NCBI GenBank assembly: GCA_036785375.1
Contig: JAWMAR010000419.1
Location: 558,001-622,000 of the forward strand
Direction: 5' to 3'
DNA from: Leucoraja ocellata
Lineage: Eukaryota
DNA: 64,000 nucleotides
In this document: piece after piece, positions 5,860 to 52,235 of the stretch
How positions within the stretch are numbered: position 1 is the first letter of the stretch
How the letters are laid out: every line of letters begins with the position of its first letter
Position numbers and translations under genes: made by a program
Notes under the pieces: generated by a model
Seen by the model: the letters and a program-made list of their open reading frames with translations, nothing else
Told to the model about the DNA's origin: nothing
Database searches by the model: none

Positions 5860-6050
5860 AATCTGCTGAATTAACTCAGCGGGACAGGCAGCATCTCTGG
5901 AGAGAAGGAATGGGCGAGGTTTCAGATGCTTCAGTGACCTGAGGCATCACTCATTCCTTCTCTCCAGAGATGCTGCCTGTCCCGCTGAGTTACTCCAGCA
6001 TTTTGTGTCCACCTTCGATTTAAACCAGCATCTGCAGTTCTTTCCTACAC
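5860..6050. repeat. Penelope-derived fold-back repeat
   Basis: inverted arms gcagcatctctggagaga / tctctccagagatgctgc. Confidence 0.75.
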
Positions 6051-6453
6051 AATCAAGTCCTCCATCTCTGTTATCATTCTGGTAAACCTCTTCTATATAA
6101 TTTTAAAACTTCTCTATTTGTCAACTGTTGTGCCTCAAACTGGATATATTTTTCCAGCAGAAACCCAACAGTATACGACAATTTTTTTTCTTTAAAAAAA
6201 AACTATTTACTTATTACCAAGCTTTTTTAAAAATGTGAATTTACTACACCTTCTAATATTTACAAAGATATACACATCCCGACATCGTAACCTCTGTTCC
6301 CATATTTTTCATTTAAAATTGTACTATTTAATTTATATTTCCTCCACCCATTGGATTGAAAATCTACCTCTCTGCATCTTGGCTGACAAAATTGAGATAA
6401 AAGAAAGGAAATCCACCAACAGTCTTAAATAAAGTAAATAAAAGAGCTCTCAC

Positions 6454-6511
6454 TTTAAAACCTTTATTTTGAATTTCAGGTCACCTGGCTCTCCATCTAT
6501 ATGTGGTTCAC
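6454..6511 (-). CDS. DNAJB11: DNAJB11 exon 7
   Basis: GEPHIDGEPGDLKFKIKVLK; 58 nt, AG/GTGAGA. Confidence 0.96.
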
Positions 6512-9500
6512 CTATAGAGAAAAGAGAATGTACAACTTCATTTCTGCACAATAAAGTTGGCAATTTTAGTTATCATTTGTCACCATTTTACAATAGCAAA
6601 ATGCAGAATCTTACTTTAATATGTTGACTTATGGATACATTCATCTTTATGCACATTTGTGCCATAAGGCACCAACAGATCGGTGCTGGCATTGGTTGAG
6701 AAGGTGAGATGAATTCAAACTCATTTGGGCTTTTAGAAGCATGGGCGGAAATCCCAGGGAGGGGCCAAGGGCCAAACCCATTGAAATCCCCACTTTCCGC
6801 GAGACAGTGGGGGTGGGACTGCTGATCGAGGGCGCCGCTTGGACGAGAGCGCCGTCAGTCAGCAGGCAATGGGCAGAGACCATGATGATTCAGCGCGATG
6901 ATTGGAGGAGGGAGACGTCCTGGTGAAGCAAAGATCAATGAGCGGAGCTTGAATTGCATGCCCAGGTCATAGGTAAACATGCGAAAAACACTCTCGGCAG
7001 CCCTGGACACGGACCTGCGCCTCATCCGCAGCCAGGATCGATCCCGGCTCTCCAGCGCTGCAATCACTGCCGAACCACCACTGGACCATCCCCGTCCCCA
7101 CCTGAGTGGCCCCCCCCCCCCAAGCCCAGGGGTGGCCAGAGACGTCTGGAGTCAGACGGGAACAGAAATGTTATTTGTGTACGCTTCGTTGTCACCTTCT
7201 CCTAGCTAACAATGATAAATTCTACATTTTCGTTATGTCTCGTTTTCACACCTTATCTTTCCATATCACCGTGTCTCCCTCTCCCCTGACTCTTTGTCTG
7301 AAGAAGGGTCTCGACCCAATACGTCACACATTCCTTCTCTCCAGAGATGCTGCCTGTCCCTGAGTTACTCCAGCATTTTGTGTATACCTTCGTAGTTACT
7401 TCAAACATGAGTGGCCATTGAAATTGACAAGCAATTGCTTTTACTGACGCTTGCGGGATACAACAGACAGCTTTTTGTATTTTTAGCTTGCAGTAAAAGT
7501 AAAATTATTGACATTGAAAAGTCTTTAATTTTTGAAATTCCAAGTGGAAAAAGAACTTTGCTATTGAGTCTGAAACTGTCAGCCCCCAATCTCCTTTGAC
7601 CGACTGATACAATTCTTTGTATCACATGATTTTCTAGAACAAGAAGTTTGTTTGGAAATTAACTATCACGTTATAGCCGACCTAAGAGGATTCGTAAAAA
7701 GATAAGTTTTACAGGGATTTGGTAATACAGTTGAATAAAAGGTTTTACGAAGGGAATAGTTGGTCCGAAACATCTTAACACCCTGCCATGTGTGAAACAA
7801 TGAAGGCAAATTAACTTGGGGATGATTTGAAAGGCTACTTTCAGGAGGCCGCAGAAACAACTTGAAGTAGATCAGGAAGCTGAAGCTACTTCAATAGTTG
7901 GTAACCCCCTGGAGTCAGCAATGTTACTACAACTGGCAAGCATGTCTGGATACCATTGGCAGGGTTTAGAATAAGCTGGAATAAAGGAGCCAGCAATTAT
8001 AGTATTTCAGCACAAAAGAACGAACCAAAAATATGAACAGTGATGCGAAAATAAAAGGAGAATTTTGTAATGAAGTCGTTTTGGTAGCAAGCAAGATAAC
8101 AATTTGTAACAGGATACAAGTGGTTGGGTTAACATCAGCCAGCAGCTGAGAAAAGGAATGGAATTCAATCAACGGCGCTGTCTTCCCAATGTTAGGCTGA
8201 TGGAATTCCATGCAAAACTTAGCATTATACAAGAACCAGATAGAGTGATACAGCTTGGAAACAGGCCCTTCAGCCCAACTTGCCCACACCCTTTCCAGCT
8301 TGAGAACATCTTTCGTATAACATGGTGCCCAGAACTGAACACAAGACTCTAAATGCAGTCTCACCAATGTCTTATACAACTGCAACATGACCTCCCAACT
8401 TATGTACTCAATACTCTGACTGATGAAGGCCAAAAGCCTTTTTGAATACCTTATCATCCTGCGACTCCACATGATACAGATGTTCATGGCACTGGTCGGT
8501 GAAAAGTGATCAACACACACACACATAATGTACTCAATACACGTGGAATTTGACCGCACTGTTTCATCTGTTATTGTCAGGACAATATTTGTCCAATCTC
8601 TCCTGATAACTTAATCCCCACCAATCCAGGCAATATCCTTGCTCATTGTTTCTGCATCCTCACTATCTTATCACAGCTCTCATACGGTGTGGTGACCAGA
8701 AAAGGTTGGGAGGCTTTCAAAAGAGAATAGGAAGATTGCAGGGCCAACACGATTATGGATCACTGGTTGATGAGAAATATTACGGTCTGGTCTGAAAAGA
8801 GGAGGCTTACATCAGGTATCGGCAGATGGGATCAAGGGAGAATATGGAAATAGGAATACATACAAAAAGGAAATTAGGATGATGAAGAGATATCTCTGGC
8901 AGGCAAGATAAAGGTCTGAAGAAGGGTCTCGATCTGAAATGTCACCCAATCATTCTTTCCAGAGATGCTGCCTGTTCCACTGAGTTACTCCAGCATTTGG
9001 TATCTACCCAAGATAAAGGATAATTTGAACAGATTATGTCAATATTAAAGCCAGGGAGAGCGTAGGTTCAGGAAATGATCTAACTTCTTTATCCTTCTTC
9101 ACCGTAAATGCAGACTACAATTTATTTACTGCGGAGAATAATATGAGTTTAAATGAGGGAAGAGTAACTTCCTGGAGCATTAACACAATCAAAGGTACCG
9201 GACGTCTTGAAATGTATAAATAATGCAATATCATGTATTTTGGGAAATTAAACCAGGGCAGGACAGACATCATGAATGCAGTGGCCAGGGGAATGTTGAC
9301 GTTTAAAACGACTTGGCAAATCACGCAGTAGAAGGAAAGTTGAGGATGCTGTCATTCCATGAATAAAAATAATAAAAACAAAAATCTTATAATCATGTGC
9401 GAAAGGGAGATGCTATTGCATGTCAGCCAGTCAAGCCAGCAACATTGCAGTCCCCAGAACGTCAGTTTGAAGAGATGGAAAAAAATGGACCAAAAGATTT

Positions 9501-50035: not shown

Positions 50036-50140
50036 CTACAGCTGTAAATGTGGTAGCTGAATAGTTACATCACGGAAAAATCGATGACTTATAGCAACTT
50101 TCGCAGAAATCCGCTTGTTAGGATCATACTGGAGCATTTG
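50036..50140 (-). CDS. CDK2: CDK2-like kinase, last coding exon
   Basis: [38 protein letters not shown], 34 aa, CDK2-type C-terminus; AATAAA (minus) at 50012-50017 and an AT-rich 3' region. Confidence 0.82.
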
Positions 50141-50589
50141 CTAGAAATAAAAATGAATCTATTTCACAACTTGCTTACTAAAGTGTCATTAAATAGGTAA
50201 GTGGAACATTTAGTACTTGAATTTAAAAAATTGTGCTAATTACACATTCTTAACCAGCATGTAATACATCTCCAAACAACTGACTGTAACCCAGATACTT
50301 ATTAGGAAGGCAAAAAGAGGACATGAGATATCCTTGGCAGATAATGTAAAGGAGAATCATAAGTTCCATAATAATAATAATAATAATAATATTTATTTAT
50401 ATAGCACTTTTCAACAAAACCAGTATTTGAACCAAAGTGCTTTACAGAGTTTGATTAAATTAATAGAACAGACCAAATGTCAATATATACAAAAACAAAA
50501 AAGAGAAAAAGAAAAAAAGACACAGAACAGTACACTATAGAAATCAACATGAAAAAATAAGTGTATTAAGACCAGAGTAACCAGGGAGA

Positions 50590-52235
50590 GATTAGATCCC
50601 ATCAGTGCAGTTGTCAACGTGTCGAGGCGCAGATGGACAAGGTCTTAAATAAGTACTTCTTGTCCGGATTTACCGTGGAAAAGTTATTGGAGGCTAGGGG
50701 ATTCAGAAAAGAGAACAGGGATGTTTTGAAACATATTATCATTGTGAAAGAGGTGTTGCTGGTGGTGTTGAAGCACATAAAGGTGGATAAACCCCTGTGA
50801 ACTGATCAAGTATATTCCATGTATATTCTAGGAAGTTGTGGGAAGCAAGGGAAGAAATTGTAAGGGCTCTGGCCGAGATATGTGTATCATCGATAGCCAT
50901 GGGTACCGGAAAATTGGAGGATAACAAACATTGTGCCTTTATTTTAAGAAATGGCTGCAAGGACAAGCCAGGATACCAAGCCAAGGTGAGGCTTCCATCA
51001 ATGGGGGTAAGTTATTAGAGGCGATTTTGAGAGGCAGGGCCTATCTGCATTTGATAGGCAAGGTCTAATTACCCAGCCTGGCTTTATGTGTAGGAAATAA
51101 TGTTTGAGTGAGCTTCTTTAAAGACGTGACAAAGAGCACTGACAAACGCAGTGCAGTGGATATTATGTACGTAGACTTTTGCAGGATTTTTGACAAGGTC
51201 CCGCTTTGTTGGCTGGTCTGAGAGTTTAGATCATGAGATGCAGGATGAGCTAGCCGAATGGACGCAAAATTGGCCTGGTAGAAAGAGACAGGGTATTGGT
51301 AGTGGGGGGTTGTTTTTCAGGTTGGAGGTCTGGGATCAATACTGTTTGTAACGTATATTGACAATTTGAATGAGAATAAGTTTGCGGATGACACCAAGAT
51401 TGATGGTGTGGTGTACAGTAAAGAAGATTGCCTAAGGCTATCAGGATCTAGGGCAACTGGGAGAGTGGGCAGATAAAATTTAACTCAGACATGTGGAAAG
51501 TAATGGATTTTGGGAAGTTAAATTTGGGCAGGACTTACTAAATGAGGGGGCCCTGGGGAATATTATAGAACAAGTACTTAGTTCGCTGAAAATGGTGACA
51601 TGGATAGAAAAGGTGGTGAAGAATTCATATGGCATGTTTGCCTTCATTAGACAAGGCACAACATGTTACATGTAGGAAAAAACTGCAGATGCTGGTTTAA
51701 ATCGAAGGTAGATACAAAATGCTGGAGTAACTCAGTGGGACAGGCAGCGTCTCTGGAGAGAAGGAATGGGTGACATTTCGGGTCGAGACCCTTCTTCAGA
51801 ACATATCTTCAATATGTTATGGGACAGCTGTACAAGATGTTGTTGAGACTGCACCTGGAATATTGTGTGCAGTTCTGGTTGCCTTACTATAGGGAGGATG
51901 TGATTAAGCACGAGTGGCTGTAGAAAAGATTCACGAGGATGTTGCCAAGACTGGTGGGTGTGTTATAAGCAGAGACTGAATAGGCTGGGACTGTTTTCCC
52001 TGCAGCAATGGAGGCTGAGCGGTGATCTTACAGAGGTTTAAAGAATCATGAAGGAAATAAATAACTCAATATTGTTATAGTCTTTCTCCCAGGATAGGGA
52101 AGTCCAAAATTATTTGGCACAGGTTTGAGTAAAGGAGATCTAAGAACCAATTTTTTTCACACAAAGGATGGTGAGTAAATGGAGCTGCCAAAGGAAGTGG
52201 TGGATGCGGTACAATTAGAACATTCAAAAGACTTC
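50590..52235 (+). mobile_element. Old degraded CR1
   Basis: remnants gactttt..gacaaggtccc, aagtttgcggatgacaccaag. Confidence 0.7.

Follow-up and report, generated by a model that had tools for sequence, protein, structure and literature searches.

Decayed ends of a Penelope-like element with an inherited minimal hammerhead motif as the probable source of dispersed fold-back repeats in a 64-kb stretch of the Leucoraja ocellata genome

What are the short, often inverted repeats that are scattered through a 64,000-nucleotide stretch of the skate Leucoraja ocellata, and do the hammerhead ribozyme motifs that some of them carry still act there? The stretch (NCBI GenBank assembly GCA_036785375.1, contig JAWMAR010000419.1, positions 558,001 to 622,000; hereafter the window) had received a first-pass annotation that proposed about 20 copies of a retrozyme-like family derived from Penelope. 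The best overall explanation, which is held here with good confidence, is that the copies are decayed pseudo-long terminal repeat (pLTR) ends of a Neptune-type Penelope-like element (PLE), with an inherited hammerhead and one retrotransposition product per locus.

Positions within the repeat are numbered with C3 of the hammerhead core as +1; ribozyme cleavage would follow +28. An iterated profile search (nhmmer) of the window found 36 arms, and projection onto one reference sequence gave 37 aligned arms, besides two tail-only pieces (17343-17363 and near 27156). Together these make up 25 loci with a total of 4,073 bp (6.4% of the window), a local density of about one repeat locus per 2.6 kb. 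The repeat described by the first-pass annotation is thus real and all 14 coordinates given for it have a copy at or within about 25 nt (the upstream homology of the copy placed at 7170 starts nearer 7190), while its count was too low. Subfamily A contributes 26 arms, subfamily B six, and five are older. The 3' ends are bimodal, 20 of the 37 arms ending at +86 to +101 and 14 at +122 to +130, the longer ends carrying a Penelope-type tail of about 37 bp. The usual copy is only the final ~95 or ~130 bp of the element; 21 of the 25 loci lack any upstream untranslated region (UTR) or open reading frame (ORF), and four arms extend beyond the 5' boundary into one or the other.

A flanking word of at least 8 bp, as expected of a target-site duplication (TSD), is shared at 11 of the 25 loci compared with 2% of 600 mismatched flank pairs, in a test that rests on hand-set boundaries, of which that at 7170 was set about 20 nt too far out. 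TSD length ranges from 8 to 16 bp and includes the 15-bp (38370) and 16-bp (36315) cases reported earlier. Inverted arms, likewise reported earlier, occur at 11 head-to-head loci (10 pairs and 17246), and all 10 pair junctions differ from each other, with filler sequence, a brief overlap or a palindrome at the join; fold-backs and single arms are equally common. No sequence subfamily private to the short copies turned up, no formal search for one having been made. In a tandem-repeat listing of the window (TRF, 32 rows), no row involves the repeat unit and there is no head-to-tail array, and the two direct-repeat loci do not hold two cores. A scan of bacterial and archaeal genomes with the 28-nt motif gave no matches. 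The family may already be catalogued in repeat libraries such as Repbase or Dfam.

The origin of the repeat can be read from its longest copy on the minus strand, in which a GIY-YIG coding part (42841-43119), interrupted twice by frame changes and once by a stop, is followed by a 3' UTR and then by the repeat, just as had been described for a Penelope fragment with the repeat as its 3' tail. A CxxC lies between GIY and YIG (42994-43119, minus strand), the Pfam GIY-YIG match is weak (E=0.03), and 10 of 12 candidate proteins, three of them named from rays, share 69-75% identity with the endonuclease fragment. These relatives are laid out as reverse transcriptase (RT), linker zinc-finger motif and GIY-YIG endonuclease (EN). 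By regular expression, a CxxxxCxxC-type linker is present in 10 of 18 named shark and ray proteins, most of the others ending before the linker, and the window copy also ends before the RT-EN linker region. The hammerhead core starts about 140 bp after the ORF stop, and the order is the same in a zebra shark read-through ORF (P0016), which runs through the UTR and ends in residues matching the translated core. Furthermore, 21 proteins in a set of 1.84 billion are translations of the same repeat at other loci, and some of them have, by eye, inverted arms. A tblastn search of the window with four relatives found no PLE RT and no second endonuclease locus; the RT is seen in the close ray and shark relatives. 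Published Neptune or Nematis elements have an extra zinc-finger-like linker, CX2-5CxxC, between RT and EN, a motif common to both clades (PMC8557442; here and below, statements on published systems refer to the accessible parts of the works cited). The repeat is the 3' pLTR of an endonuclease-bearing PLE of cartilaginous fishes, the clade of which, judged from the relatives' sequences, is most likely Neptune. Its copies are very probably truncated PLE ends, and each locus looks like a separate retrotransposition product.

Several smaller features accompany this copy and its relatives. Its UTR (42703-42843, minus strand) has, by eye, a donor-like site at the ORF stop and a pyrimidine-rich tract with AG before the core, and a second acceptor-like site follows the cleavage site; by analogy with Drosophila virilis, the UTR is a possible intron. 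At its 3' end the copy adjoins a short element with degenerate inverted ends (about 42476-42612, by eye), which we take to be like a miniature inverted-repeat transposable element (MITE). The proteins P0001, P0012 and P0115 are named as ray or skate host genes (kinase-like, chitinase-domain and nicotinamide riboside kinase isoforms); they are largely PLE RT or endonuclease, through misannotation or exonisation.

The hammerhead itself is readily recognised at the level of the family. The consensus matches the published minimal hammerhead, with both core boxes, the base after A9, G10.1-C11.1, the CG palindrome and UH, and the earlier statement of Penelope origin, minimal type I motif and high density is borne out. 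Hammerheads follow the NUH rule at the cleavage position. If the motif were read as type III, it would be cut just before the core and G would stand at that position, for which reason this reading was discarded on inspection by eye. A descriptor of both core boxes, a 4-bp helix II and UH has five matches in the window versus a mean of 0.035 (maximum 1) in 200 shuffles, and a looser motif pattern has 13 versus 3.83. The individual copies are less complete than had been claimed. The core, said to be present in many of them, is reached by 20 of the 37 arms and keeps all its letters in five of these 20; intact letters, perfect helix II and palindrome coincide in one (14738), where the motif at 14711-14738 (minus strand) is indeed as first written. 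Helix I has 2 bp in the consensus and 3, 2, 2, 0 and 1 bp in the five intact cores, and the 3-5 bp of most published motifs is not characteristic of the family. The GGT/ACC flanks, described as frequent, are scarce: GGT stands upstream in 3 of the 20 core-covering arms, in one of the five intact cores, in which the GG belongs to the TSD, and in none of the four arms that retain the element's own upstream sequence.

Outside CpG sites, divergence is the same in the core (16/180) as in the flank (118/1322; 8.9% vs 8.9%, p=1.0), in a test of the 26 subfamily-A arms that excluded the six B and five old arms and trimmed two end positions per arm; 31 of 126 CpG sites of the motif have changed. The probability of helix II in its locus context is 0 for 14738 and at most 0.056 for the other four intact cores, and the 14711-14738 core, previously taken for the best copy, is locked in a long hairpin. 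Pairing is preserved across the differences between subfamilies (in helix II, one change from U-A to C-G; facing U2.1, either A or G), and a covariation check, which had been recommended, gave three double-sided changes in 125 cells, values reached by 39-107 of 500 shuffles. The recommended covariance models likewise returned no hammerhead family: Rfam gave seven matches in the whole window (E up to 1) and five on the two best copies (E up to 10), all of them microRNA-like hairpins below gathering score, with models whose design does not extend to minimal cores. Six copies folded as single strands were of ordinary stability (z -0.05 to 1.6) and did not adopt a hammerhead fold, and two copies folded together gave no active dimer, by a method that cannot model the hammerhead core. 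In the fold-back junction at 43659-43696 (plus strand), a hammerhead-like motif is assembled from two broken arms, with both boxes, a 4-bp helix II and the palindrome, no helix I, and a position inside the strongest hairpin.

The motif is the element's inherited minimal type I ribozyme, decaying in the copies at the rate of the flanks. Since core divergence equals that of the flanks, intact cores are few, helix I is short and the best copy is sequestered, the copies look dead, and in all likelihood the ribozymes are inactive in the host copies. Published minimal motifs did not cleave as monomers and did so weakly as dimers (PMC4209133), the Anolis hammerhead, which insertion in vitro can do without, depends on the protein of its element (PMC11167929), and eight of nine tested Xenopus dimers did not cleave (bioRxiv 10.64898/2026.07.22.740005). 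By analogy with these systems, the ribozyme of the parent element probably needed a partner in order to work, either a second copy in a dimer or the element's protein.

How, then, did the fold-backs arise? The tail is found on exactly one arm in 8/8 simple fold-backs (0.5^8 = 0.004 if the arms are independent at p=0.5) and in 3 of 13 single copies. At four loci (14651, 17246, 28396, 30088), the arms are non-nested, each having sequence that the other lacks; neither arm was therefore copied from the other, and self-copying of the complementary DNA (cDNA) is ruled out there. At 17246, an inverted arm (0 to +93) and a tail share no overlap at all. The 5' ends are equally regular. Among the 20 arms that reach +2, 16 stop between -4 and +2, a 7-nt span before the core for which 9.7% would be expected from the downstream hazard (binomial p=2e-13 with arms treated as independent; 14/18 by locus). 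This pile-up includes single copies bounded by TSDs, and the single copies 8914, 12725, 25223, 43336 and 51800 end at the same boundary without inversion. The initiator consensus is YYANWYY, and the TCAGT directly before the core is initiator-like; as the stretch from -4 to +2 reads as an initiator, run-off at the 5' end of the RNA is favoured. Ribozyme cleavage as the source of the 5' ends was rejected, 2 of 37 lying within 2 nt of the cleavage site (+29), both in old, poorly aligned arms. The 40-mers upstream of the boundary contain no evident common hidden segment by eye, nor did a look upstream of the core show a spliced first exon common to the arms.

For 12 tailed arms, RNAalifold predicts a single 8-bp stem, between mid-unit and tail, without compensatory change. 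The mid-unit 8 nt (about +48 to +55) pair with the tail, for example in 51668-51768 (minus strand), and have an alternative partner at about +76 to +83; these two modelled stems, mid-unit with tail or with +76 to +83, might set two RT start sites.

A mechanism that would fit these regularities is dual priming with run-off, which is put forward tentatively, at slightly less than an even chance, from the one-tail fold-backs, the non-nested arms and the analogy of an Anolis protein that extends both strands from two sites. RT would start at two fixed internal sites about 37 nt apart, giving tailed and tail-less ends. Priming at one target end would leave a single arm; priming at both ends on the same RNA, one per start site, would give two short cDNAs, which on being end-joined head to head would form a fold-back with one tail. 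Most cDNAs would stop at -4 to +2 if the RNA began at the initiator-like TCAGT, and the short copies, rather than being cut out by the ribozyme, would have arisen by run-off on the 5' pLTR or on short pLTR transcripts. More conjectural is the fuller version, in which an RT dimer would prime both target ends at the two fixed sites of one RNA and run-off would yield strong-stop-like, possibly self-reseeding solo pLTRs; these could reseed themselves because the RT start signal and, possibly, the promoter would both be internal. The family had been called non-autonomous, and the sharp 5' boundary does fit short self-propagating solo pLTRs, although they are not separable from run-off on a full-length RNA. 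In L1 twin priming, both target ends prime on one RNA and leave an inverted segment; 17246 has this geometry, whereas the second site would be fixed here and the arms usually overlap. No titles or abstract openings joined twin priming with Penelope, the subscription literature, including reviews of 2005 and 2006, being mostly out of reach.

A number of observations weigh against this account or its parts. The evidence comes from one 64-kb window, and the Neptune assignment is drawn from a linker motif of the relatives that Nematis also has. The conservation test has limited power (180 core cells), so that one exapted copy could escape it, and helix II covariation is not above shuffles (59/500). 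At the 5' boundary, the TCAG that precedes the core has a second possible reading, that of a splice acceptor; it acts as one in D. virilis, in which transcription starts about 120 nt upstream (PMC4209133, PMC2377424). Among the four long arms, one lacks TCAG and one has a change in it. Of the 16 pile-up arms, 11 sit in fold-backs and hence are not fully independent. The three-part locus 38369-38645 is tailed on both inner arms, its outer ends following the one-tail rule, and two fold-backs were cut short and are uninformative on the tail. Three fold-backs (5856, 26069, 43535) have nested arms and two have clean palindromic centres, and self-priming explains both features equally well. Finally, arms of the same locus are more alike than the between-locus mean in 6/7 cases and never clearly closest, so that a single shared RNA template is not demonstrated.

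The rivals account for parts of the same evidence. A fixed, sharp 5' boundary and the many loci without upstream UTR or ORF are what would be expected of a separate non-autonomous family of solo pLTRs resembling short interspersed nuclear elements, in which short masters with a start near -2 would be transcribed, and moved in trans by a Neptune RT able to start internally; pLTRs suffice for trans-mobilisation in Adineta (PMC3846280), and putative non-autonomous PLEs are described in Chlamydomonas (PMC8557442). Such a family is somewhat unlikely, in view of the four arms that run beyond the boundary and of the missing private subfamily, for which no formal search was made, and it could hold together with the best explanation, to which it is no strict alternative. 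Self-priming, in which a nascent cDNA or antisense template folds back at a palindrome, has been modelled for Adineta Penelopes (PMC3846280) and would suit the palindromic centres at 26189-26196 and 43657-43665 and the 3-nt loop at 36365; a short palindrome around -4 to +4 would also produce the 5' pile-up. The four loci with mutually non-nested arms, including 17246 without overlap, and the five single copies that share the boundary without inversion speak against it, and we regard it as unlikely.

The retrozyme-like family of the first-pass annotation, spreading through self-cleaved, circularised RNA and able to cut host pre-mRNA, can point to a consensus that fits the minimal hammerhead, to subfamily differences that keep pairing and to Xenopus retrozymes that arise from PLE pLTRs (bioRxiv 10.64898/2026.07.22.740005). 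It is nevertheless very improbable: the tandem-repeat listing holds no array of the unit and the copies no shared junction, 5' ends avoid the cleavage site, the core is not conserved and its best copy is sequestered, minimal hammerheads elsewhere have no monomer and low dimer activity (PMC4209133), most tested Xenopus dimers stayed uncleaved (bioRxiv 10.64898/2026.07.22.740005), and the one-end tail, variable TSD and 5' truncation are Penelope signatures. A MITE or foldback DNA transposon with terminal inverted repeats would explain short inverted-repeat elements flanked by TSDs and little else, as TSD length varies, the outer ends are unequal with one tail per simple fold-back, single arms are as common as fold-backs and the sequence is the UTR of a retroelement ORF; this is scarcely credible.

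The preferred reading, decayed Neptune-type pLTR ends, agrees in most respects with published elements. Head-to-head pLTRs with a one-end tail are well known for PLEs (PMC8557442, PMC3846280, PMC8969392), as are inverted 5'-truncated copies tailed at one end (PMC8557442, PMC3846280). Neptune-clade elements (Craig et al. 2021, PMC8557442; Arkhipova et al. 2013, PMC3846280) share the C-terminal GIY-YIG with two cysteines between GIY and YIG, the relatives' linker zinc-finger motif, heavy 5' truncation, partial tandems, head-to-head pLTRs, a one-end tail of 30-40 bp and variable TSDs. They differ in that nearly all copies here are bare pLTR ends, at the density given above, and end at a 7-nt 5' boundary at the core start that the accessible parts of these two papers do not describe. 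With published minimal PLE hammerheads (PMC4209133) the motif shares CUGANGA, the extra base after A9, G10.1-C11.1, GAAA, the CG palindrome and UH, while a 4-bp helix II and 2-bp helix I lie at the short end of the range; a 2-bp helix I is also found in Culex, D. virilis and Oikopleura (PMC4209133 supplement). Poseidon PAc of Anolis carolinensis (Frangieh et al. 2024, PMC11167929) resembles what is seen or proposed for our family: behind its hammerhead lie two RT start sites by which the tail is set, both target strands are extended, and no RNA ends fall at the cleavage site. Its protein, a predicted dimer, cuts and extends both strands, and ribozyme cleavage is not needed in vitro (PMC11167929). 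It belongs to another PLE clade, however, and the accessible text links the two start sites to no fold-backs and reports no fixed 5' boundary (PMC11167929). Non-LTR retrozymes (Cervera and de la Pena 2020, PMC7229834; Li et al. 2026 preprint) are likewise short, non-coding and PLE-related, with a type I hammerhead; unlike the single or inverted, minimal, decayed and intronic copies here, they form head-to-tail arrays with a hammerhead in every unit, have mostly canonical hammerheads and expressed circles, and are depleted from introns (PMC7229834, bioRxiv 10.64898/2026.07.22.740005).

As a ribozyme finding this is ordinary, and the family is a further case of known PLE-borne minimal hammerheads: truncated PLEs were reported in 2014 to leave such motifs both dispersed singly and as pairs on opposite strands (PMC4209133), and the copies here look dead. 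Cartilaginous fishes were not met in the accessible hammerhead surveys, one chondrichthyan having been screened for tandem retrozymes only, and no literature was found that combines Neptune, Penelope and elasmobranch. Supplement file 2 of PMC4209133 has no shark, Callorhinchus or Leucoraja entry, and file 1 may list shark motifs. In coelacanth and Xenopus, 4,000-9,000 hammerhead motifs have been reported (PMC4209133). The 25 loci and five intact cores per 64 kb would, if typical, exceed these numbers. The genome measures about 2 Gb, and were the window typical of it, there would be of the order of 10^5-10^6 loci by this single-window extrapolation; if dual priming with solo pLTRs is true, the family would be one of the densest vertebrate hammerhead-motif families. 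What is added here, as a testable mechanistic lead, is the one-tail rule, the non-nested arms and the fixed 5' boundary. Fold-back shape may record the mode of insertion that makes the head-to-head repeats of Penelope elements and their one-sided tail; a skate or ray genome would offer very many independent junctions, for which dual priming, self-priming and run-off give different counts.

Two host genes were found in the window rather than the three in whose introns the copies had been placed: TBCCD1, an exon of which is 93% identical to the stingray protein and 83-77% to those of sharks and chimaera, and a J-domain gene, presumably DNAJB11-like judging from its motifs and position. No third gene emerged when 150 of the 185 remaining ORFs of at least 50 aa in the gaps were scanned with Pfam, which gave one RT and two weak matches only; a gene of short exons could escape such a scan. 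The copy at 51670 lies past the last coding exon of TBCCD1. There is no strand bias, the introns of the DNAJB11-like gene holding 13 arms (7 sense, 6 antisense) and those of TBCCD1 16 (8 sense, 8 antisense). In the region 19625-19800, the DNAJB11-like gene has a signal-peptide exon near 19625-19692. A second GC-rich island near 27600 (27500-27800) has donor-like sites on both strands, and copies at 25-28.6 kb may be intronic or intergenic, depending on which island starts TBCCD1.

With regard to RNA-level effects, long hairpins are to be expected, as already proposed, in any transcript that runs through the fold-backs: the ten fold-backs that were folded form hairpins on either strand, with energies from -41 to -175 kcal/mol (from -68 to -175 in eight cases), and double-stranded RNA in pre-mRNA is on this modelling plausible. 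Cleavage of host pre-mRNA by the ribozyme, the other effect proposed, is unlikely, the core being no more conserved than its flanks, an outcome fixed beforehand as counting against it. TBCCD1 contains no plain sense-strand copy with an intact core, only the motif assembled across the junction at 43659, and of two sense intact cores in the DNAJB11-like gene, one is mismatched in helix III and the other sequestered. The motif in host introns is almost certainly silent, with long double-stranded hairpins as the main effect. Inverted Alu pairs serve as editing or small-RNA substrates, and by analogy the intronic hairpins may do so too. The 37411 insertion lies 8 nt inside a TBCCD1 intron (37401-37503), its TSD copying the splice donor about 95 nt downstream; from its sequence, the duplicate is a possible alternative donor.

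Table 1. Repeat loci and host genes in the window (positions are those of the window; repeat positions relative to C3 = +1).
Feature	Position	Strand	Description
Longest copy	42605..43125	-	Broken C-terminal GIY-YIG (42841-43119), ~140-bp 3' UTR, core start 42702 with G8 mutated, no tail
Second short endonuclease-end piece	43137..43175	-	Upstream of longest copy, same orientation (partial tandem)
Head-to-head fold-back	5851..6052	.	Left +21..+88/93 tail-less; right +16..+130 tailed; no core; no TSD found
Single copy	7190..7392	+	~105 bp variant 3' UTR (5' edge approximate), broken core, no tail
Single copy	8914..9008	+	Starts -1; core letters intact; helix II with two G-U pairs; tail-less; 11-bp TSD
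Single copy	12590..12725	-	-2..+130, tailed; core letters intact; helix III non-palindromic; 8-bp TSD; sense in DNAJB11-like intron
Single copy	13081..13147	-	+26..+92; no core; 11-bp TSD
Fold-back, subfamily B	14648..14866	.	Left (minus) -1..+86 with core; right +18..+129 tailed; arms non-nested
Core of 14648..14866 left arm	14711-14738	-	U at cleavage position; helix I 2 bp
Fold-back	14932..15077	.	Right arm cut at +39, so uninformative on tail
Older diverged fold-back	16582..16797	.	Tail on right arm only
Inverted arm and tail-only piece	17246..17366	.	Arm 0..+93; no overlap; 10-bp TSD; twin-priming geometry
Single copy	25223..25313	+	Begins at +1; all core letters kept; mismatch in helix II; helix I absent
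Fold-back, palindromic junction	26064..26222	.	Left arm tailed; right arm cut at +35
Complex locus	27063..27287	.	Plus arm +33..+122; tail piece, inverted; second plus arm starting at -12, internally deleted
Fold-back	28392..28616	.	Left +11..+130 tailed; right +2..+93 tail-less; 9-bp TSD
Fold-back, subfamily B	30084..30250	.	Left ~+60..+130 tailed; right +2..+100 tail-less; 8-bp TSD; non-nested
Old diverged single arm	33345..33410	+	No core
Single copy	33996..34212	+	~125 bp 3' UTR; broken core; tail-less; 8-bp TSD
Short fold-back, subfamily B	36312..36457	.	No core; right arm tailed; 16-bp TSD; within LINE fragment
Single copy	37411..37495	+	Core deleted; 8-bp TSD duplicating TBCCD1 splice donor
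Three-part insertion	38369..38645	.	On minus, a short piece without tail and an arm with tail; on plus, an arm with tail; 15-bp TSD
Old diverged single arm	38850..38919	-	
Old diverged single arm	40028..40078	-	
Single copy	43336..43468	+	-3..+129, tailed; G12 mutated
Fold-back	43530..43765	.	Left -4..+126 tailed; right -1..+97 tail-less; both cores broken
Single copy	51670..51800	-	0..+130, tailed; all core letters kept; UG in helix III; helix I 1 bp; lies in neither coding span
DNAJB11-like gene (presumed)	5290..19700	-	Coding exons from ~19700 down to 5290; last exon not located; Pfam J domain
TBCCD1, coding span	29213..44035	+	Coding exons mapped

The window also contains other elements and an assembly gap of 200 N (47773-47972). 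Two of the copies (36312-36457 and 51670-51800) sit inside long interspersed nuclear element (LINE) fragments, which makes them younger than those fragments. A fragment at 671-1090 (plus strand) has no Pfam match and presumably resembles an L1/Tx1-type ORF2 C-terminus. From 54 kb onward, only transposons were found. A weak RT match lies at 53994-54257, and fragments at 54484-55762 (plus strand) have a zinc-knuckle and a restriction-like endonuclease motif with no Pfam match, which presumably resemble those of HERO/R2-group retroelements. An LTR-type integrase ORF (59802-60875, minus strand) stands back to back with a frameshifted RT/RNase H cluster (60889-63708, plus strand), assumed to be DIRS-like. 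An open LINE ORF of 827 codons with endonuclease and RT domains (55845-58328, plus strand), presumably CR1-like, has many 3' fragments of the same family in the window.

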